Assembly: GCF_003018255.1 (NCBI RefSeq)
Contig: NZ_CP027440.1
Source of the DNA: Escherichia coli
Lineage (GTDB): Bacteria > Pseudomonadota > Gammaproteobacteria > Enterobacterales > Enterobacteriaceae
Reading direction: 5' to 3' (one strand)
Length of the DNA: 64,000 nucleotides
A model generated the notes under the pieces. That model was not told where the DNA came from. It saw nothing but the letters and a program-made list of their open reading frames with translations, and did not search any database. The position numbers were made by a program, and so were the translations under genes. Shown here one piece after another: positions 4,504-16,097 of this stretch (its first letter is position 1; the number at the start of each line of letters is the position of its first letter).

Positions 4504-7500
4504 TTACTGGAAGCAGGTCACCAGACCCGGTTTATTTTTTATTAGCGTGATACTACAATCCTGCGCTCCAGTACCTTCGTCCATCCCACACTGTTGAGAG
4601 GACAAATAAGGAAAACTGGGTGAAGACGGCCATCCCAGTGAATTAAAAACAGTATGCAACAACTCTAATTCATTGTATGTCGGTGCATTTTCTATGCTGC
4701 CACACTGCCTTGCGATATCCCATTTACTGGCATCAATGATATGTGCAGAAGCCCAGTTTTCGTAGTTAATAATCGGTGAGGATACGGGATTAGCCCCGGA
4801 CGGCAATTCCGTCGTTAACAACGGTCGATGTAGCGATTTACTAGTCACCACTACCGTGTCTGCCATATGTCCCCAAAAGTGCGCCGATGAAACATTTGGG
4901 CTGGTTGGCACCGTAAAAATAGCATCCAGCGTGTCTGTCGCGGAAGCGTAATTAGCCAGAGTAACCGTCAGTGGCATTTTATAACCAGGGGTATTATCCT
5001 GGCGGAGCGTAAAACTTGCCGTCCCATCCGCGCCTGTCATGCCACTAATGGTATTACCGCTTTCACTCAGCGTAACAGCCGAACCTGATAACGGCTGAAC
5101 GACGAGATCGTCCATCGCCACTACATTGCCATACAACGTTGCCCCAGCGTTACGCGGCGATGCCTCACCACGTTTCAAAGTAAATTCAACATTCGGCACC
5201 GTATTCCCGGCGCTGTCTTTCACCGTCACGGTTACGGACATGGCTTCGCCTTTTTTCACTTTCGCCGCCTGAGTGGCTGCATCAAACGCTGTTGAGGTAA
5301 GTGTGACGCTGGAAACGGTTGAACGCGCGTTAGCCAGGCAAGGCTGAAATGATTTTGTTGAACCCGTATACAGCGTGCCATTTCTCAAATCAACCGACTG
5401 GTCTTTACCATCGGCGGATTTATCCTCTGCCCACCAGGTGTAATACGCAGGCCAGCCAGTTTCAGTGACAAACGTGTTATTCGGATAACGCGCAGACAAC
5501 GAACTTAAATCATTGAATAGTGGCTGCCTTGCTACTTCACAAGGGCTCACACTCGCATCTGATTTCTGTGTTGGGGTAAAGTACGGCCAGTCTTCATTAT
5601 TGTTATTGATCTTGCCGACGCCAGAAGTCGATGTCAGTTCACTCCACAATTTCGGGCGTTCAAATACCGCACCATTCACTGCCGTCAAGGTTGCTGGCAT
5701 ATGCCCCCAGTAGTTAGCCTTCGCAGAATCCGGGCTGGTCACTACCGTGAATATCAGGTCCTGATTAGCCGTAACCTGCGGATTTCGCGCCAATGAAGCT
5801 GTAAACGGCGTTACCAGACCGACGGTGTTATTTTGGGTAACGTTGAACGTTATCGTGCCATCACTGCCGGTGAAGCCGCTCCATGCCGACGTATTCTGGT
5901 TGAAGGAGATACGCGCCGATGTTGGGGTGACTTCATCTAAAATGAGATCATCTACGGTATTGGAGGATACAGAGATCCCTGAACGGCTTTTCGCCTGCAC
6001 GCGCTTGAGCGTAACACCTTCGCCGCCAACAGGATTACCATTGGCATCTTTGATCGTCACCACGATGGGAAGCATCTCACCTTTTTTCACAGATGACGTG
6101 GGGGTACCACCATTGCTGGCAGTTCGGCCCTCATCATAGGCAGTCGATGACAGCGTAAGGCTTGCTGGTGCCGAATGTGGCTGCGTCAGACAGAGCATTA
6201 AAGCGTATCCATTAATAGTCGTCGTCGATTGTCCCGTTTTCAAATTAATGACGCCGTAATACCACGTCAACGCGTCAGTGGTGCTCATTTCATAAGTCCA
6301 CCAATTTCCACTTCCGGCAGTTATAGGCAACCCCAAATCTGTCAGTATTGTCCCGCCTGGATGATCATTATATAGCCCCTGTAACTCATTGAGACGCGGC
6401 TGATACTCAACCGGGCAATCCGGCGTAACTTTATTGGTATAAAAAAGGTATGACCACGACTCATTATTATTACTTACCGAGGACCCCAAGGTCGCTTCTG
6501 CTGCCAGTAGCGGTCGTTTAAAGGTCACCCCCGCCCTACTGGTAAACGTGTCGGGCATATGACCCCAGTATTTTGCTTTCGGTGAGTTCGGACTGGTTAT
6601 CACAGTGAAAATAACATCCATCGTGGCACTTTTTGTGGTGTCGCGCATCAATGTTGCAGTGAGCGGAGTTGCCAGCCCATAAGTCTCGTTTTGCGTCACA
6701 TCAAAAGTCGCTTTACCATCACTTCCTGTCGTCAGAAGTGCCTGTGCCCCATTATTATAGAGTGACATGTTTACTCCGGCAGGGGTGACCGGCACGATAG
6801 TAAGATCATCATACGTAGAATCTAGCCTGTTTTTTGCACGATCCAACGCAGTCCCGCGTATGAGATTAAAGTTTGCGCCTGGCAACAGATTTCCTCCGCT
6901 ATCCCGCACAATCACCGTCATCCGGATCGCCGTACCTTTCGCCGCCGTTGCACTAGGGCGACCATCGTTGCTGGCCGTTTTCTCCGCATCCAGTGCCGTG
7001 GAGGTCATCTCTATAGAAGCTGCCACTGCATGAGGGTTTACCAGACAGGACACAAATGCCACGGTGTTTGATAATGCCCTGGAGCTTGATCCATTCGATA
7101 AATTAATAGACTGATCGTACCAGACGTTCGCGTAGGCAATTTTATCGTAAGCCCACCAGGTGTTAGTCAGCGGAAGGCCTAAATCGGTCCCTATCGCACC
7201 ATTAGGATGTTCACTGTATAACTCTTGAAATTCGCTTAATAACGGTTGATAAGGTTCGCCGCAGTCTGATTTGCTGACATCATTTTTTGCTGCCGTATTC
7301 AAAGAAAGCCATGATTCATTATTAGCCATGGTTGACTGCCCCGCTGGATGCTCGGCAGTAAGCAATGGCCGCTTAAAGGCAATTCCCGACCGGGTAGTAA
7401 ACGTTTCAGGCATATGCCCCCAGTAACTTGCCAGTGGCGTATCCGGGCTGGTTATGACGGTAAACATGACCGGTAATTTGTTGGATTCTATCGTCAGCTG

Positions 7501-10500
7501 ATACAACTGGGCGTACATATTGGTTACCAGGCCCATAGAATCATCTTGTTTTACCGTAAAGGAGGTAGTCCCGTCCGCGCCAGTCACCCCATAAAGCAGG
7601 CTTGAAGAACTATTCATCCTCGCAGAAGCGCCTGCCGCGTTAATTACCGTAATCGACTTATTTATCATCTCGGCATTTTGACGGTTCTTCGAGCCTTCAC
7701 GTCTGAGAATAAAGGGGACATTGGGCACGCTATTTCCCTGCGTATTTTTAGTCACCACGCGAATCACCGCGTCTTCGCCTTTTTTCACTTTCAACGCACT
7801 CAAGGTGTCGTCAACTTTGACAAATTGCGCCGTATCATTCGCCTCAACAATGATCTGACTGGCAACGGCGACAGGCGTGGTCCGGCAGCTCAGTAATGCA
7901 CCACCAGATGAGGGCATCTGCGTTTCATCTCCTGTCTTCAGCGAAACGACATCATACGTAAAGGTTTGAGTGAACGTATCTGCAACGGTATTCGAGATAT
8001 AGAACCTCGACACTGGCCAGCCAATAGCATCATGTAATGCGCTACTCCCCTGGTGCGCATAAATGGCCCTAAGTTCATTGTCAGTTGGAACATACTCCGC
8101 GCCACAACCATTTATCGAGGTATCGTTAGCCTGGCCCGACGGGAACGTAGACCAGGCCTCCCCCTCTTCCACCAGGGTACCGATACTGGTGGTAGCACTA
8201 TTCTCGTCCCTCAGCAAAGGCCTTCGATAAATAAGACCGTCATCGCCTGTCGCCGTTTCAGCCATATGCCCCCAGAATTTGGCTTTTGGCGAATCCGGGC
8301 TGGTAAGCACCGTAAAGACAACGGGAAGCGTCGATTTAGTGCTGCTGGAGGAATCCAACGCTGCCGTGAGTTCTGTTTTTAGCCCGGTAGTCTGGTCTTG
8401 CTTCAATGTGAAAGTGGTGATGCCATCAGCCCCCGTCACGCCATAAATAACCAGGGTCGTTGAAAGAAAATCATCTTGAGTATTTCCCCAGGCATCCGTT
8501 ACCGCCAGCGAAGCAATCGACGTCGTAGTTGACACATTGGCCCTGTTCACGCTGGTGTTTCGTTTGAGGGTAAATGCGGTATTTCCCACAGGGTTACCCT
8601 GCGCATCTTTAGTGGTCACTCGTAATACGGCTTCTTCGCCTTTTTTCGCTTTGACAACATTATTCGTACTGTCAAATTTTGTGGGGTCTGCAGCTTCAAG
8701 AACAATTTGGCTTGCCTTAACAATCGGCGTCGTCTGGCAGGTAAGCAGTTCTTTTGTGGCAGATGGAATTATCGAACTGGTGCCTGAACTGAGATTGACG
8801 GCCTTGAAGTCACGCTGTTCCAGGCTACTACTACCTGTTGTGCTGGAAAGGTAACTTGAGGCGACGGGCCAGCCCTGAACCGTTTTCATCGCATTGCCGC
8901 GGTTGGCTTCATACAATGACTCCAGCCCGGCCTGGGAGGGAACATATTCACTACCACAACCATTAGAGGCTGTGCTTATAGCCTGGGTTTGGGTAAATTG
9001 CGCCCAGTCTTCATTCTCTTCTGCAATCGCTGTTCGACCCGACGTACTGGATAACTCTTTCAACAATAATGGGCGTTTAAAGACCGTTCCATCTGCAGCC
9101 GTCACTGTTTCAGGCATATGCCCCCACATTTTCGCCTTATCGCTGTCCGGGCTGGTGACAACGGTAAAAATGGTATCGAGGGTCGCTTTTTTCGTTGTGT
9201 CTGAATAGAGCGCGACGGTCAGCGACGTTTTTGTGCCATGGGTATCCGGGCGGGTAATAGTGAGAATTTTAGTGCCATCGCTGCCGGTCATCGCGCTGTA
9301 TGCTGCGGCGGTATCATTGAGCGAAGTTTCATCCGCCAGGCCACTATTGATCACAACCGGCGCAACCAGCGCATCACCGCCACCGGCAATGTGTTTTTCG
9401 TTTGATCGGGTATAACCATCGCCACGCTTCAGCGTAAAAGGCATATCACCCAATGGATTGCCCTGAGCATCTTTTACCGTCACCTTCACCTGTAGCGTTT
9501 CGCCTTTTTTCAGCTTCGCCGCATTTGCTGCCGCGTTCCACTGCGCCGGGTCCACCACTTCCAGCGTAATGCTGCTGGCAGGATTGTTAGCCGTCGTCAG
9601 GCAACTGACATAAACCGCCGTGCTACCGCCAACGGTCCGCGCGCCATCGTTGAGGGCTATGGTGTAGTAATGCGGCACCTGATCCGCGGGCGAACTGCTC
9701 CAGTAGGGCTGACGCTGCGTTGGCCAACCGTGTACCGTTTGAACGGCGTTACCGCTGTTAGCATCATAGAGCGCGTTAAGCTGGGAACGGCGTGGGAGCA
9801 TATTGGCACCACAGCCACCTTTACTGGTGCTGGAAGTGTTGGCCTGGCTAACGCGCGACCACACTTCGTTATTTTCCGTTAATGTGCCGTCCGGGCTGGA
9901 CACTTCCGCAGCCAGCCGGGGTCGGGCAAAGGTTAATGCATCGACGGTAATCGTCTCATCCATATGACCCCACATCTGCGCGCCAACCGCATCCGGACTG
10001 GTGAGCGTAGTGAAAATCACATTGTAATTAACAGTATTGGGAATATAGGAGTTTACAGGCGCAATATTCAGCGGCGTCGCTAAGCCCACACCTTGCGGTT
10101 GCTTAATTTCCACAGTAGCAAAACCCTGCGCATCCGTAGTACCGGCATAGACTAAAGACGGTTGCGATGTTCCGTAGAGTGTGCCATTCATCTCGATTGC
10201 GCCGCGGGTTGGATCATCAAAACCTGTAGTCTGCCCCTGACGATTTTTCCCCATATCTTTAGTGATGGTGAACGCGGTATACGGCACGGGCGCATTATTC
10301 AAGGCATTAAAGGTGCGTACCGTCATGGTAATCGTTTCACCCTCTTTAGCCTGCGCTCTGCTGCTTGTGGAAACATCATGATCGGTGGTCGCAGCAATCT
10401 GGGCGACCATCTCATTGCCCGAACAAGAAAGGTAGTTTTGCTTAAAGCCGGAATAGGTGTCGATGTTGCCCGTGGCCAGGTTCACCGACGCGTGCGACGT

Positions 10501-12558
10501 CTCTTCCACCGCACTAAGATACGCTTTTTGCAACGTTGGCCAGCCATATTCGGTGCCGATGACATTGGCTGGATGTGCGGCAAACAAACTGTGCAATGAG
10601 CTTTGGCTCGGAATATGACCTAAACCACACTCAGCCTGCATACTGCTATTCTGATCAAACAGCGCCCAGTCTTCGTTATTTTCCCGCACTGCTCCCAGTT
10701 CGTTGTCGGTTTCATCCGCCAGCCGTGGGCGTTTAAAGATATTATTCGCTTCAATAATGCCTAACATATGTCCCCACATCCGCGCTTTGTCGGAATCAGG
10801 GCTGGTGATCACCGTAAAAATAACGTCTTTCTCATCCGAGGCGGTAAAATCACTGCGCATTTTCGCGGTGATGTGTGTTTTCACCCCCACGCCGCCTGGC
10901 TGGGTCAGCGTCAGAGAGGCCTCTCCGTTAGCATCAGTGATCCCTTCATAGGTATGCGCGTCAACTTTGCGAACGTTACTGCCACCATCAATTTGTACCG
11001 GATGCGTCTCCCACGCAGCGTCAGTTTGATTCTTACGGTTAACACCGTCATCCAGATGCAGCGAAAAGTAGTAGTAAGCCAGCGGCTGATCGTTGTTCTT
11101 GCTATCGGTAATCGTCAGGCGTAAAGAAGCCTCTTCCCCCACCTTTACTTTCATCGCTTTTATCGTCGAATCATAACTGCCCGGCGTCAGTACCAGCTTC
11201 GGTTCAACATCGGGCGCTTCTTTATCGACACAGCTCACAATAAACGTCGTATCGTCCGGTTTTTGCGCTTCGCTGCGGTTCGAAACATCCGCCGCATGGT
11301 GCTGCCCGCTCATCCCCGCCAGTGATGACCAGTAGTAGTTACCCTGCATCGGCCAACCAGCCACATCCTGCACTGACGTTGGCACCACCGTCGCCAGCGC
11401 ACCGAACTGACGCATTCCGGGCAAAATGTCGCAATGTTTATCCGCACCACTCCAGGTAAAGGTGGACCAGGTTTCATTGTGATCGTTAACCGTACCGTCT
11501 TCATTATCGACTTCCGCCGCCAGTTTTGGTCGACTAAAAGTGTAATCACGGGCCTTCAGCGTATCGGGCATATGACCCCACATTGTGGCCTGCGGGACAT
11601 CCGGGCTGGTGAGGACGGTAAAGATCACTGCCGTTTCACTGGTCTGAGCAATACCCGCGAGGCTCGCGACCAACGGCGTTTTTACACCAGGGGCGTTGGC
11701 CTGGGTGACCGTAACCGTGGCAACACCATTCGCATCGGTAGTACCACGATATTCCGTCGCGGTGGTGGTTAATTCGGTCGTGCCCAGTTTTACCGGCGCA
11801 GTATTGTTCACTACACCCTGGCGGTTTTCAGCATCTTTGCGTTTGATAACAAAAGGAATATTCCCCACAACATTACCGACGCAATCTTTGGTGGTGACCG
11901 TTAACGTGATACTGCCGCCAACCGTCGTTTTCGCCGCACCGGAGGATTCGTCATAGCCCGCGGCGCTGACGGAAATAAGGTCACCCTGCGCGGGCGCAAT
12001 CTTCAGCGTCACTTTCTGATCGGCGAGGGTCAGAACACTTTCATAGGGATAGCCCGTCGAGGTAAGTAGATATAACAGCGGCATGGTCTGCTGGGGGTCT
12101 GGCTGCGCCCAGGCGATCAGCGAACGCCCGGCAAGGCCCTGTGCGCAAAATGAGCGATCTGCGACTGGCTGTGGGTCCAGTAAGGTGTCCGGCGTCGCGG
12201 CATCCGCCCAAACTAAAGATACTGTCGGTGGCGTTTGGTTTTCCCAACGTGGTGTGGCAATGATATCGCCTTCTCTGTCTTGCGGGTTGGTGACGAGCAA
12301 TTTAGAGACGCTAACATCCGCGCTGAATTCACTCGGTTTAGCGGTAAACGCTACCTCATGCGTCTTTGCAGGATCCAGAAAGACACTGCCCTGGTAGACG
12401 GGTATGCTGGCACTGTCGGCGGTGGGCACGGTACCGTTAAATTCGCCGACCGTATCTGAAGAGTCTTGCCATGCAGATTCTGCCCATGCCCCCCCAGGCA
12501 GCATTGCGCTTATCAGCAATGCGCAAAACACAAGGATTTTATTCAGGGTCAGGGACAT
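4504..12558 (-). CDS. ratA: giant secreted repetitive Ig-like protein, RatA family (2684 aa)
   Basis: Uninterrupted 8055-nt ORF with GGAG 8 nt upstream of the ATG. The N-terminal Sec signal is [26 protein letters not shown]|ES. It contains nine reiterated modules, each holding a Big_1/invasin-like segment (KKGE..L.V.V.KDA.GNP...FTLKR...G.TG.DG...). It lies downstream of sinH-sinI between xseA and yfgJ, as in the Salmonella CS54 island. Confidence 0.85.
4507..12006 (-). repeat. nine tandem divergent coding modules (~804-858 bp each) inside ratA
   Basis: The protein motif (I/V/M)FT(V/T)xTSP(D/N)...(M/F/Y)WGHM recurs nine times. Its WGHM codons appear on the + strand as CATATGNCCCCA at 11569, 10765, 9961, 9115, 8263, 7411, 6556, 5698 and 4864. 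The spacings are 804, 804, 846, 852, 852, 855, 858 and 834 bp. Apart from this motif the copies differ substantially at nucleotide level. Confidence 0.9.
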
Positions 12559-12602
12559 GACAGAAACTCCACCGGTTGTTAAACGGACGCTTGTCGCATC
12601 AA

Positions 12603-12637
12603 CATATTTTGCTTAATCCGGGATTAAGCAAAATATG
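12603..12637 (-). promoter_or_regulatory. 35-bp perfect palindrome (17-nt arms, 1-nt centre) in the sinI-ratA spacer
   Basis: catattttgcttaatcc-g-ggattaagcaaaatatg. It lies 45 nt upstream of the ratA ATG and downstream of the hairpin at 12644-12667. It could be an RNA stem-loop (processing or stability) or a dimeric-protein operator. Confidence 0.5.
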
Positions 12638-12643
12638 CGGAAA

Positions 12644-12667
12644 CAGCATTCCCTTGCGGGAATGCTG
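12644..12667 (-). terminator. terminator-like hairpin just after sinI (possible attenuator before ratA)
   Basis: cagcattccc-ttgc-gggaatgctg is a perfect 10-bp stem with a 4-nt loop, 12 nt after the sinI stop. On the coding strand only TTTCC follows, so termination is likely partial at most. Confidence 0.4.
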
Positions 12668-12678
12668 CTGAGTACGCG

Positions 12679-13656
12679 TTATTTGTGTTTGTAAATAATG
12701 TGAAGTTTGTACCCCTGTACCCCGTCGCCGTTGGTCGGGATGGTAAGAGCTTCTTTACCATCGCGCGCAGGGCCGTTAAGGTTGGTTCTGGCGTCTTCGT
12801 TGGTCGCAGGGATGACCAGATTGTTATTATCGAAGCTTGAGTTGACGATACCACCCGAGGTGCCGAGCTGTTGGCTGCTGCCAGAAAGTACCCAACGGAA
12901 GTCATAATTGGCGGTAACGTCAGCATCGGTATCCGCATCAAACTTGCCATTTTTGTTCTCATCCGAGTACAGTTTGGCCACGTAGGTTTTGCCAAGTTCG
13001 ATTGGCGTACTGCCGTTGATAAGGTTGATACTGGTACCATCAACAAAGATGGCGACTTTCAGGTTCTGGTTAACTACCGGCCCTGGCGCAACGTTGTCGC
13101 TGTCGCTTCCGCCGCCGCTGGCAGTGGAAATGTCATAAAGATGCAGCGCAGTCCCGACGTTTGGCGTACCGGTCTGCGTGGTCGGCGTAATTTCAATACC
13201 GATATAACGACCACGGTCGTCATCGGTAAGAGTGTAACTGGTCACCTTCGTTGCCAGCTCTTTCGGATCGCCCCCCTGAGCGTCCTTGTAGCTCATCCAG
13301 CGGATAGTATCGATAGTCTTTGCGTTATCGCCCAATCCCCCAAGATCCACGTCGCCTTCGGTATCACCAATTTCCCAACTTACGGTTAATTTATCACCCG
13401 AGTAAAGACGCTTGTCCGTTTCACTGCCTGTCGGGCGAGCGCCTTTTAGATCAGAAGTCAACGTTACATGGTCGGCATCTGTCGTAGCGCTTCCCCCTTC
13501 CGAATAGAGCCACGGAATGGTTCCCTGGAAAATATTGGTTTCGCCGCTGTCGACCCAGGCGCTTTCTTCCGCCAGCGCCACAGGTGCCACACAATAACCT
13601 GCCAGTGCCAGCGCCAATGCGATCCGGGTCAGACCGCGTCTTTTATCCTGCTTCAT
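12679..13656 (-). CDS. sinI: secreted SinI-family protein (325 aa)
   Basis: ORF with the SD AAGGAGAG upstream and the Sec signal MKQDKRRGLTRIALALALAGYCVAPVALA|EE. It sits between sinH and ratA. Its C-terminal ~130 aa are paralogous to the SinH C-terminus, and its mature N-terminus resembles that of RatA. Confidence 0.85.
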   Translation of the reverse strand: MKQDKRRGLTRIALALALAGYCVAPVALAEESAWVDSGETNIFQGTIPWLYSEGGSATTDADHVTLTSDLKGARPTGSETDKRLYSGDKLTVSWEIGDTEGDVDLGGLGDNAKTIDTIRWMSYKDAQGGDPKELATKVTSYTLTDDDRGRYIGIEITPTTQTGTPNVGTALHLYDISTASGGGSDSDNVAPGPVVNQNLKVAIFVDGTSINLINGSTPIELGKTYVAKLYSDENKNGKFDADTDADVTANYDFRWVLSGSSQQLGTSGGIVNSSFDNNNLVIPATNEDARTNLNGPARDGKEALTIPTNGDGVQGYKLHIIYKHK

Positions 13657-13710
13657 TGATGCTCTCCTTAATGAACCTTCAGCGACTGGCCGACTGGCCT
13701 TACGCCAATC

Positions 13711-15888
13711 TTATTTTTTGGTATACAGCACGCGTAAACCGTATCCCTGCAAGCCATCTCCCGCTTGTGCGCCATAGGTTTGCGCTGCTTCGCGGTTAGT
13801 GGCCGGAATCACAATGTCCTCATTGGAAGAGTTCGCCTGTGCACCCACTTCACCATTGATGCTCTTGCCGGTAAATTCCCACTTGTAGTCGTACTGCGCC
13901 ATCTCTTCGTCAGTCAGTTTTTCGACCTGCTGGAAGACACCGTCTTTATTGCTGTCACGCCACAAAACAAATCGATAAGTGTTGTTGAGCGGCAGCGGTT
14001 CTTTATCTTTACCTATCAGGTTGCTGGGTTTAGCTGCCCCCACACGATAGATAAATGCATTTAGCCCACCAATTTCTGCCCCGAGGAAAGTGACATCCAC
14101 ATAGTTACTGTCGTCGTAGGGCGCAGCTTTTGCTTTCCAGCGATAGGTGCCGGGTAAGGTACTGGAGAGGGTGACAGTGCCCTTTTCTTTATCTTGTTTA
14201 GCGATAAAAACGCAGGGGTTGTCGGTCGAGCAAGGCTTGTTGGTTAACGTCACTCGTTTGTCCTGCGCGTCGTAAAGCCGCGGCGTGAGGTTATCTTCCG
14301 GCAGCGCATCGCCATTGCGGTCGGTGTTATCGCCAAAGCTGTCGGTTACATCGAGATCCATCACCACACCATCAACGCCATCTGCCTGGGCGCTGGCTTC
14401 GTGGCTGTGGTTGTTCTCTTCCGGCACGTTCGCGATGTTATTAACAATCAACTCAATTTTACGGTCCTGCTGAACGGTGATTTCCACCACACCAGAGTTC
14501 TGTCGGTTGCCCTTTTCATCTTCCAGTGCCAGACGTACTCGCCAGGTATTGAGTTTTTCTTGTTCGGCTTTGTCAGAGCTGTACTGCCAGGCGGGCAGCA
14601 CCAGGTTCCAGTGGTTATTGTTACCCTCTGTCAGGGTATTCTCTTTGATAACCGGCATAACCAGCGTGCGGGCAGCATTGTTTTTCGCCTGCCATGACGC
14701 AGCGACAATTTTGTAGTGGTGGTTGATAAGCGCGTTAATGGTCCACTTACATTTTTCCAGCCCGACCGCCGCTTCAGGCGTATCTTTAATGACACACTCG
14801 GGGTGTTCGTTGGTGGCATCCGCTTTTAACCACAGGGTGACATCAAGCGGATCTTTTTCTTTGTATTCCAGAACAATAAAGTTATTACGCTCAACAAAAT
14901 CATGACGACTGCCCATCAACGAGTGAGCCGCTTTCACTTTATCGCTATCCAATTGATCTTTTAGCGGAACGCCGAACTGATAATTAAGAGTGGCATTAAT
15001 GCTGACATCGCTGTTATCTCCGGTCCCCGCTTTATAGTCCGCCCCAACGGTTAGTAATGGCACCGGTTGATAATTCAGTCCAAGTGTTACCGCGTAGGGA
15101 TCTTTCTCCAAATTATCCGTACCAAAAAGGGCAACTTCATCGCCGTAATATTGCTCGAAGACAACTTTGCCCCCCAGTTGCGGATAAGAAGGTAACCAGG
15201 CTTCGGCGCGAATATCCCAGCCGCGCGCAGGACGCTCCTCATAAAAATCGAAATCTTCGGAGTCTTTCCAGTCAGAAAGCGGATGATAATAGTTGCCAGA
15301 GAATTTTAAATAATCAGTCCACGCTTCGCCGCCTAAACCTAAACGGCGATGTCCTCGGGTAAAATCATAATCATAAAATATATTCCCGCCCAATAACCAT
15401 TCATTAAAATTATGTCTTACCCCAAGACCAATATTCCCGATTGTACGATCTTCTTTTCGCTGCGCAGAAAATTGACTGAAATAAACAGTGGTTTGATTAT
15501 CGTACCAGGGAACAAAATAATCGATGGAACTGCCATCCAGATCGCCGCCCTGGCCAATGGAGAGGTTCGAACGGACCTTACCGTAGGGAGAGAGAGTGTC
15601 TTCAATATAAGATTGTGCGGTTGAGGTGATTTGACTTTGCAGATAGCTTCTGGCCTGAGATTCCAGCGCCTCAGGGGTCAAGTTTTCAAACCCTTGCGTG
15701 GCGGAGTTGATGATGTAATCGGCTCCGCGCTCTTTCAGCGATTTACCCTTGTTGGTTTGTTCATCCTGCTGTGCTGCCTGGCTACCTAAATCAGGTAACG
15801 ATTCGTTTTGCTTAACATTTATCTCTGGTGCCGCGAAAGCAGCACCAGAGATAAATGTTAGAATAATACAGCGTTTCCATCGCAGCAT
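13711..15888 (-). CDS. sinH: intimin/invasin-like inverse autotransporter outer-membrane adhesin SinH (725 aa from ATG 15888)
   Basis: The ORF-track entry begins at 15918, but that codon is TTG. The ATG at 15886-15888 has AGGGAAAG upstream and yields the signal peptide MLRWKRCIILTFISGAAFA|AP. Diagnostic inverse-autotransporter beta-domain motifs are present: GWDIRAEAWLPSYPQLGGKVVFEQYYGDEVALFG and MGSRHDFVERNNFIVLEYKEKD. Compare intimin GYDIRAEAYLP...EQYYGD and LGSRYDLVQRNNNIILEY. Confidence 0.88.
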   Translation of the reverse strand: MLRWKRCIILTFISGAAFAAPEINVKQNESLPDLGSQAAQQDEQTNKGKSLKERGADYIINSATQGFENLTPEALESQARSYLQSQITSTAQSYIEDTLSPYGKVRSNLSIGQGGDLDGSSIDYFVPWYDNQTTVYFSQFSAQRKEDRTIGNIGLGVRHNFNEWLLGGNIFYDYDFTRGHRRLGLGGEAWTDYLKFSGNYYHPLSDWKDSEDFDFYEERPARGWDIRAEAWLPSYPQLGGKVVFEQYYGDEVALFGTDNLEKDPYAVTLGLNYQPVPLLTVGADYKAGTGDNSDVSINATLNYQFGVPLKDQLDSDKVKAAHSLMGSRHDFVERNNFIVLEYKEKDPLDVTLWLKADATNEHPECVIKDTPEAAVGLEKCKWTINALINHHYKIVAASWQAKNNAARTLVMPVIKENTLTEGNNNHWNLVLPAWQYSSDKAEQEKLNTWRVRLALEDEKGNRQNSGVVEITVQQDRKIELIVNNIANVPEENNHSHEASAQADGVDGVVMDLDVTDSFGDNTDRNGDALPEDNLTPRLYDAQDKRVTLTNKPCSTDNPCVFIAKQDKEKGTVTLSSTLPGTYRWKAKAAPYDDSNYVDVTFLGAEIGGLNAFIYRVGAAKPSNLIGKDKEPLPLNNTYRFVLWRDSNKDGVFQQVEKLTDEEMAQYDYKWEFTGKSINGEVGAQANSSNEDIVIPATNREAAQTYGAQAGDGLQGYGLRVLYTKK
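14854..15636 (-). other. SinH inverse-autotransporter beta-barrel plus linker region (approx. ORF residues 95-355)
   Basis: The region spans SQITSTAQSYIED... to ...FIVLEYKEKD and carries the intimin/invasin beta-domain motifs listed for sinH. Boundaries were estimated by eye. Confidence 0.6.
15813..15860. repeat. 19-bp perfect inverted repeat with 10-nt spacer inside the sinH signal-peptide codons
   Basis: taacatttatctctggtgc (15813-15831), spacer cgcgaaagca, then gcaccagagataaatgtta (15842-15860). It begins 28 nt downstream of the ATG at 15888 and encodes LTFISGAAFAAPEINV. Confidence 0.9.
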
Positions 15889-15918
15889 GCACTTTCCCTG
15901 TGACAATGATACAGTCAA

Positions 15919-16097
15919 AAATAAGCTTTAATATTGTATCCCTGATTATTCAGAAAGGCATGTCATAAAGAATAAATATACTCTTAATTATTTAAATTAG
16001 TGATTTCACTCAATTACATTAGTTATTCCACTAATAACAGATTGTTTTACCATTCACATATTAAATATAAATGATAAAACAATATATTCACATGATA
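15919..16097 (-). promoter_or_regulatory. AT-rich ~180-bp region upstream of sinH (presumed operon promoter / right island junction)
   Basis: This non-coding stretch between the yfgJ stop and sinH is visibly much more AT-rich than its flanks, with runs such as aataaatata, ttaaatataaatgataaaac and tatttaaattag. One sigma70-like pair on the - strand is TTCTGA-N16-TATTAA. No GATC sites and no simple-sequence tract were seen. Confidence 0.35.

Follow-up and report, generated by a model that had tools for sequence, protein, structure and literature searches.

Introduction

The closest described relative of the system analysed here is ZirT/ZirS/ZirU (ZirTSU) of Salmonella, in which ZirS and ZirU depend on ZirT and have both been modelled as binding the immunoglobulin-like (Ig) domains of this protein (Heinz 2016, PMC4943183). 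ZirS was reported to contain no conserved N-terminal secretion domain of the kind known from two-partner secretion (TPS) (Gal-Mor 2008). The recognition, export or retention of barrel-less proteins encoded beside inverse autotransporters (IATs) is an open problem, referred to as a "Gordian knot" (Heinz 2016, PMC4943183), and the proteins concerned are ZirS and ZirU, SinI and the Rat proteins. We have analysed the sinH-sinI-ratA locus of an Escherichia coli chromosome, contained in a stretch of 64,000 nucleotides of contig NZ_CP027440.1 (referred to as the window; all features given below lie on its minus strand). The locus encodes an intimin-like IAT (SinH) and two barrel-less proteins, SinI and RatA, which share a short N-terminal sequence, designated here the tag.

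The analogy between the SinH system and ZirTSU has already been drawn (Heinz 2016, PMC4943183; Goh 2019, PMC6714894). On this basis SinI and the Rat-like proteins were proposed as SinH substrates in the former paper, which credits Kingsley 2003 with the similarity of SinI to SinH and calls the N-terminal region of the Rat proteins "highly divergent", and the latter takes up the idea of SinI and Rat partners for IatB, the E. coli SinH. Both the SinI-SinH similarity and the partner or substrate hypothesis are therefore known, having been published in 2003, 2016 and 2019, and for IATs with co-encoded partners the relation of SinI to SinH is textbook knowledge. The passenger of SinH is composed of three Ig-like domains, and residues 602-724 of the protein constitute SinH-3, the vaccine antigen of Xing 2023 against extraintestinal pathogenic E. 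coli (ExPEC) (PMC9937491).

Results

A conserved N-terminal tag in SinI and RatA

The tag of SinI, ESAWVDSGETNIFQGTIP, is encoded at positions 13513-13566 and that of RatA at 12424-12480; the two align with 11 identical residues and a single gap, at exactly the coordinates given in the original prediction. In RatA the tag (residues 27-45; 12424..12480) directly follows the A-W-A end of the signal peptide. In SinI it occupies residues 30-49 (13510..13569; EESAWVDSGETNIFQGTIPW), downstream of a predicted signal peptide (residues 1-29; 13570..13656) which contains a KRR n-region, a hydrophobic core and an A-L-A motif that marks the probable cleavage site, as read from the sequence. The 11 shared residues had also been described as specified by different codons. 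This is mostly the case: the same codon is used at four of them, and both serine codons of the tag differ even in class (AGC vs TCT). Recent gene conversion was considered as the source of the likeness and rejected, because only four of the 11 identical residues share a codon; the conservation is at the amino acid level and not at the nucleotide level.

The core of the SinI leader (13582-13602; residues 19-25) contains the pattern A19-G20-Y21-C22..P25, in which A, G, C and P never vary and Y hardly does among 21 SinI homologues with identities down to 44%. Signal peptides are rarely conserved to this degree, and the pattern is not a canonical lipobox, since Y occupies position -1.

The pairwise match of the SinI and RatA N-termini is marginal (BLASTP E=0.011, signal peptides included), and the conservation of the motif across orthologues was upheld by three approaches: a search with a SinI-only profile, surveys of related loci, and a search with a joint profile. 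Among 120 SinI homologues, the stretch following the signal peptide is one of the best-conserved parts of the protein, with the consensus (N)LK.G.WQ..S.STG.I.GT.PW; residues W34, T40, G45, T46, P48 and W49 are invariant or nearly invariant in 21 diverse homologues. All 17 loci that were fetched via SinI encode a RatA-like protein with (A)LK.G.WQ....ST.AINGT.P at the matching place. The tag is also carried by both RatA and RatB of Salmonella and by both tandem Rat genes of Leminorella, and residues W30, Q31, G42, T43 and P45 of RatA are invariant in 27 N-termini of RatA/RatB-like proteins. The W, the T and the G-T-x-P element are thus invariant or nearly invariant in the SinI and RatA families alike.

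A hidden Markov model (HMM) of 22 columns was built from 67 SinI N-termini only. In the six-frame translation of the window, the N-terminus of RatA was its top non-self match (E=0.009; the next match had E=0.87). In the translations of 17 other loci (a search space of 463,000 residues in six frames), the SinI open reading frames (ORFs) were followed by 13 matches to RatA-like N-termini, with E values from 2e-6 to 0.85. One SinI ranked among these 13, all of the RatA-like matches are situated just after the signal peptide, and the first unrelated ORF appeared at E=1.5. The joint SinI/RatA profile (36 positions) was compared with 1.84 billion representative proteins and yielded 56 matches at E<=1e-3. 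Every N-terminal match, from Escherichia, Salmonella, Citrobacter and their relatives, belongs to the SinI or the RatA/RatB family, five internal matches are to unrelated repetitive proteins, and no third tag-bearing family was found in this protein set. The tag is therefore real, conserved in both families across Enterobacterales, and specific to SinI and RatA/RatB.

Tandem pairs of Rat-type genes, both members of which carry the tag, are located at L012:11037-20956 and L027:9080-16960 (Leminorella and Salmonella; related loci are cited by number, where necessary with positions); the tag of Salmonella RatB is AVRSSGAWQELTEQTAAINGTPP. As two tagged Rat copies may be present in one locus, tag-bearing proteins can outnumber the domains that resemble Ig3, the distal Ig-like domain of SinH.

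Concerted change of the two tags

The variable residues of the SinI tag and the RatA tag change together. In the window, as in its nearest relatives, the two tags have no LK.G prefix and read ..EF.GT, while in most other lineages both contain LK.G and both read ..(T/A)I.GT. On average, cognate pairs of SinI and RatA tags scored 51.6 and non-cognate pairs 43.4 (n=18; permutation p=1e-4). To sample unusual SinI alleles, another nine loci were retrieved, and eight of these provided new tag pairs (L023 duplicates L022), among them independent cases. In L021 a B-like SinI body is joined to an EF tag and adjoins a RatA with an EF tag, and the same peculiarity is present in both tags of three other loci: "TDAI" in L020, L in L022 and an unusual "GPW" in L025. 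The hydrophobic position of the tag is F in both proteins in 6 of 26 loci, and F was in no case paired with another residue (naive Fisher p=1/230230, the real evidence being weaker due to the kinship of the loci).

The columns that separate F from non-F loci were also mapped. Within residues 1-420 of RatA all such columns fall inside the tag, SinI has four within its tag plus five outside it (residues 54, 83, 155, 275 and 276), and none was found among approximately 717 aligned columns of SinH. SinH was considered as a co-evolving receptor and rejected: no column of this protein separates the tag types, and there are no parallel switches in SinH Ig3 and the C-terminal domains of SinI.

Divergence along the locus was compared by protein-level windows. 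Four Escherichia loci (L006, L014, L017 and L018) encode SinH proteins that are 88-95% identical to that of the window, and RatA bodies as similar to it as those of its closest relatives. Yet their sinI is of another allelic type (42-52% identity), with which the tag on their RatA agrees. In Escherichia, at least three highly divergent types of sinI occur (window compared with L006, L014, L017, L018 and L019), namely (i) that of the window, (ii) the LK.G type and (iii) the type of E2348/69, with the tag AAWTTVTESTGAINGTVPW, and these alleles adjoin nearly unchanged regions encoding the SinH barrel and Ig1-2. This suggests allelic replacement of sinI or strong diversifying selection acting on it.

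Predicted structure of the tag and extent of SinI-RatA homology

AlphaFold2 models were built with family alignments. The predicted local distance difference test (pLDDT) scores are below 50 for residues 1-62 of SinI, which precede two beta domains (approx. residues 63-178 and 190-325; pLDDT 80-94). They are also below 50 for residues 18-43 of RatA, in which the fold begins at approx. residue 46 (pLDDT above 90). As the models leave the tag unpacked in both proteins, it is predicted to extend, unstructured, from the N-terminus of the mature protein and not to form the first strand of a common domain. Homology between domain 1 of SinI and the N-terminal domain of RatA was considered and rejected: the hhalign probability was 82% with the leader and tag included and 5.8% without them. 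By these alignments, the homology of SinI and RatA is confined to the tag.

No description of a tag shared by SinI and RatA was found in the literature searched, in which Kingsley 2003 and Prehna 2012 were known only through Heinz 2016. Neither the sharing of the tag nor its disorder, confinement to two families or co-variation seems to have been described.

Modular architecture of SinI

SinI was originally presented as a two-ended chimera. Both of its ends do resemble the neighbouring proteins; the likeness to RatA is limited to an extension of approximately 20-22 residues, and a further, ZirU-like module has to be placed between the ends. SinI is thus composed of three modules: the tag, a ZirU-like Ig domain and a domain similar to SinH Ig3.

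The middle module, domain 1 (residues 69-210; 13027..13452), is a predicted Ig-like beta-sandwich related to the ZirU family (model pLDDT approximately 80-90). This region matches the NCBIfam ZirU family (NF040485) with E=1e-7 and a score of 32.3 bits, which is below the cut-off of 100 bits. The same family was matched by 11 of the 21 SinI homologues (best E=3.5e-8). The relation of SinI to ZirU represents homology at the level of a domain and not membership of the family. Domain 1 also gave a weak match to Pfam IG_AIR9. A sequence search of the PDB revealed no solved relatives of SinI at E<=1, and a Foldseek search with the SinI model found only generic FN3/Ig matches with E above 0.001.

The C-terminal domain (residues 198-325; 12682..13065; model pLDDT 80-94) is a paralogue of SinH Ig3. 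Its resemblance to the C-terminus of SinH, noted earlier, was borne out by both pairwise and profile comparisons. Residues 218-325 of SinI and 641-735 of SinH share 37% identity (BLASTP E=2e-13), and hhalign of profiles of 18 orthologues each aligned SinI 198-325 with SinH 608-725 (Prob 99.5%, E=4e-22), no other region of SinH matching SinI in the profile-profile alignment. All the blocks that had been listed as shared (P..L..TY, D.NK.G.F, YD.(R/K)W..G.S, VIPATN and GDG.QGY.L..Y..K) are contained in the BLAST alignment, and the NCBIfam SinH model matches the C-terminus of all 21 diverse SinI homologues.

Ig3 (13714..14067), the domain that is duplicated in SinI, varies more than any other part of SinH (70-80% identity among close Escherichia relatives vs 92-95% for Ig1-2). 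The vaccine antigen domain SinH-3 therefore has a secreted paralogue, 37% identical, in SinI (12682-13065). Together with the very divergent sinI alleles, this paralogy could bear on cross-reactivity, decoy effects and vaccine coverage.

Organisation of the locus

Region 12400-16000 of the window matches annotated RefSeq genomes at 99.9% identity. The genes at the matched loci are named sinH (intimin-like inverse autotransporter), "SinI family autotransporter-associated protein" and "adhesion domain-containing protein". The locus is flanked by xseA on one side and by yfgJ-like, der and bamB genes on the other.

The first gene, sinH (iatB; 13711..15888), encodes a protein of 725 amino acids (aa) from the annotated ATG; the mechanically called ORF is 735 aa long and begins with TTG at 15918. 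It scores 1486 bits against the SinH equivalog of NCBIfam (NF033423; cut-off 999). Residues 73-346 of the 735-aa ORF constitute the barrel (Pfam IAT_beta, PF11924, E=1.8e-108), which resembles the structures of invasin (4E1T) and intimin (4E1S).

The start of sinI (12679..13656; 325 aa) lies 54 nucleotides downstream of sinH. Its product, a barrel-less partner protein predicted to be exported by the Sec pathway, matches NCBIfam partner_SinI (NF040711) over residues 7-322 (333.4 bits; cut-off 165), and the same model is matched by all 21 SinI homologues.

The ratA-like gene (4504..12558) encodes a giant barrel-less adhesin of 2684 aa, which scores 5883 bits against the RatA-like equivalog (NF011844; cut-off 3870) over its whole length (residues 1-2684). 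It contains nine stretches each of the Pfam repeats BIg21 and InvE_AD (InvE adhesion domain). As the folded N-terminal part of RatA resembles the passenger of Yersinia InvE (5N40, E=4e-12) and domains D00-D0 of intimin, the protein looks like an IAT passenger which bears a tag in place of the barrel.

No terminator-like sites were seen between the three genes in the window, and sinH and sinI are co-transcribed according to a 2025 review (PMC12525524). In all 27 related loci examined sinI is situated directly downstream of sinH, and in 26 of them the order sinH-sinI-ratA is retained, the exception being L028. The ratA-like gene is broken into two ORFs in three loci (L002:11472-17896, L005:11447-17926 and L011:11414-16977), probably by a frameshift or as a pseudogene; the giant adhesin is often decaying while sinH and sinI remain intact.

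The three genes share one reading frame (12559-15888), and the gap between sinH and sinI consists of one stop codon and 17 codons, so read-through or loss of the stop codon would yield a SinH-SinI fusion. A protein of 854 aa from a public assembly (P0277), which was found in the search for SinH homologues, consists of SinH to approximately ...AQSNTS, joined in frame to SinI from approximately residue 100. This fusion lacks the C-terminus of SinH as well as the leader and tag of SinI, and it arose either by natural deletion or as an artefact of the assembly.

Discussion

A proposed role for SinI and its tag

The interpretation that we tentatively prefer, with a probability of roughly 0.45, is that SinI is a partner protein of the ZirTSU type equipped with a docking or recognition tag, and that it serves as an adaptor or co-passenger coupling RatA to SinH. 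SinI would be a Sec-exported, barrel-less partner of SinH, in a system of the ZirT/ZirS/ZirU kind. The tag, which the barrel-less proteins of the locus have in common, may serve as a linear motif for docking or recognition, by means of which SinI and RatA would engage either each other or one common site; SinI is more likely than SinH to provide this site. The domain similar to SinH Ig3 might tie SinI to SinH, through Ig-Ig contact or as an alternative tip, and SinI, acting as an adaptor or co-passenger, would help to link RatA, a barrel-less protein of 2684 residues, to the SinH platform. Binding to a conserved site on SinH would still be conceivable for the invariant core of the tag (W, T and GT.P).

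Such an adaptor or docking function is plausible and compatible with the sequence data. It gains some support because the state of the RatA tag follows the tag of SinI, and not SinH or the body of RatA. For the variable residues, a contact between the two tags or a site on SinI would be favoured over a receptor on SinH, since tag state tracks SinI and RatA and does not track SinH. A more specific version, which we regard as doubtful, is that the tag is a strand-like docking peptide mounting RatA/RatB non-covalently on SinI, so that a SinH-SinI-RatA chain is formed in which EF/EF and I/I represent a specificity code. If this were true, SinI would join the SinH platform via a copy of the SinH tip domain, and the tag would represent a novel type V assembly element.

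Several observations weigh against a function of the tag in coupling RatA to SinH. Locus L028 (2501-4877) contains sinH and sinI, the latter with a normal tag, followed by a Cys/Met-metabolism gene and no adjacent ratA; as the tag is retained there, it must have a role that is independent of RatA. The downstream protein is not needed for IatB (SinH) to mediate biofilm formation (Goh 2019, PMC6714894). No parallel lineage-specific changes were found in SinH Ig3 or the C-terminal domains of SinI, and the co-variation of the tags rests on few independent events, in perhaps 2-4 lineages. Finally, sinI adjoins the 5′ end of ratA, and a recombination block ending just past the tag could explain co-inheritance without any contact between the proteins. 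One such block accounts for joint inheritance; it does not account for the same derived residues in both tags.

Alternative explanations

According to the main rival explanation, which we consider unlikely, the tag serves as a secretion signal, a counterpart of the TPS domain, and SinH is a translocase which recognises SinI, RatA and RatB individually in the periplasm; SinI would then be a substrate and not an adaptor. The position of the tag at the extreme mature N-terminus resembles that of TPS domains, and its distribution is as expected: every barrel-less protein of the locus bears it (in Salmonella and Leminorella, both Rat paralogues do), SinH lacks it, and it is retained by SinI of L028, where no RatA is encoded nearby. 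Its invariant core could bind a conserved site on SinH, and substrates of this kind are proposed in the two-partner model of Heinz 2016 (PMC4943183). However, no column among the approximately 717 that were aligned for SinH follows the tag type, although the variable residues of SinI and RatA change in step. The pore of an IAT is, moreover, thought to be filled by its own linker, here that of SinH (Heinz 2016, PMC4943183), Gal-Mor 2008 found ZirS to be devoid of an N-terminal secretion domain, and the motif profile recovered no third family.

It is less probable still that the tag is a historical relic. On this account SinI originated from duplicated and fused parts of its neighbours, the tag was kept for a generic reason (efficient Sec export, processing by signal peptidase or protection of the N-terminus), and the co-variation reflects a recombination block shared by sinI and the 5′ end of ratA and subject to diversifying selection. 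The contiguity of sinI with the 5′ end of ratA agrees with such an origin, as do the SinI alleles of 42-52% identity located beside nearly identical SinH proteins, and the signal peptides differ between alleles too. A single hypervariable stretch is made up of SinH Ig3, SinI and the tag, which would be expected of exposed antigens. Generic export, on the other hand, does not explain why the W, T and GT.P are invariant in two families across genera, or why the motif is absent from all other exported proteins among 1.84e9 sequences. Linkage does not explain the same derived residues, encoded by different codons, in both tags. Locus L021, where an EF tag accompanies a SinI body of the B-like type, also speaks against this account. 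A chance match of two short peptides of similar composition, which the pairwise E value of 0.011 (with signal peptides) might have allowed, can be regarded as refuted: the SinI-only HMM ranks 13 RatA-like N-termini above any unrelated ORF in 463,000 residues, the register relative to the signal peptide is constant in all loci, and the search of the whole protein library yields just these two families.

Significance of the tag

The tag may explain how SinI and RatA, which have no anchor of their own, are coupled or mounted on the cell surface. A short, conserved, family-restricted sequence that co-varies between partners provides a concrete and testable handle on the question of type V secretion raised above. 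There is also a practical side, as the sinH-sinI-ratA locus has matches in 1700 of 5426 complete E. coli genomes and SinH-3 is an ExPEC vaccine antigen.

Comparison with known systems

The TPS domain is a folded beta-helix of approximately 250 residues with NPNL and NPNGI motifs. Type Vb systems (TpsA/TpsB, e.g. FHA/FhaC) resemble the locus in that the recognition element of the exoprotein occupies the N-terminus of the mature protein and its gene shares an operon with that of an outer-membrane barrel. The element shared by SinI and RatA differs in being approximately 20 residues long and, by prediction, unstructured, and the SinH barrel is of the 12-stranded IAT type (PF11924) and not an Omp85 protein with POTRA domains. 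No TPS domain (Pfam Haemagg_act type) was matched in SinI or RatA at E<=0.1, and neither protein classifies as TpsA.

The subunits of chaperone-usher pili, which are assembled by donor-strand exchange, are Ig-fold proteins with a short disordered extension at the mature N-terminus. The same arrangement is predicted for SinI (residues 1-62) and RatA (residues 18-43), whose pLDDT is below 50 beside confident beta domains. A further likeness is that the extension is common to different subunits of one locus, one of which could be an adaptor. The SinI tag is not self-complementing in the AlphaFold model, and there is no chaperone or usher gene at the locus, whose neighbours are xseA, yfgJ-like, der and bamB.

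Yersinia InvE and intimin/invasin are similar to both large proteins of the locus: the repeats and folded N-terminal region of RatA match the InvE passenger and intimin D00-D0, and the SinH barrel matches those of invasin and intimin. They are unlike RatA in possessing a barrel; in RatA the barrel and linker are replaced by a signal peptide and a 19-residue tag.

Compared with ZirTSU, the sinH locus additionally encodes giant adhesins of the RatA type. SinI and RatA share a conserved N-terminal tag; ZirS differs in this respect according to the description by Gal-Mor 2008, and no Zir-like family was present among the matches of the motif profile in the 1.84e9 representative proteins. The features in common with ZirTSU are (i) an IAT beta-barrel protein followed by barrel-less proteins with Sec signals, (ii) Ig domains of the partners that resemble the passenger of the IAT itself (the SinI C-terminal domain vs SinH Ig3, E=4e-22), (iii) a fold of RatA that resembles IAT passengers and (iv) a match of SinI domain 1 to the ZirU family model, at 32 bits and hence below its cut-off of 100. 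By analogy, the SinH system would thus belong with the inverse autotransporters that have co-encoded partners of the ZirTSU type.

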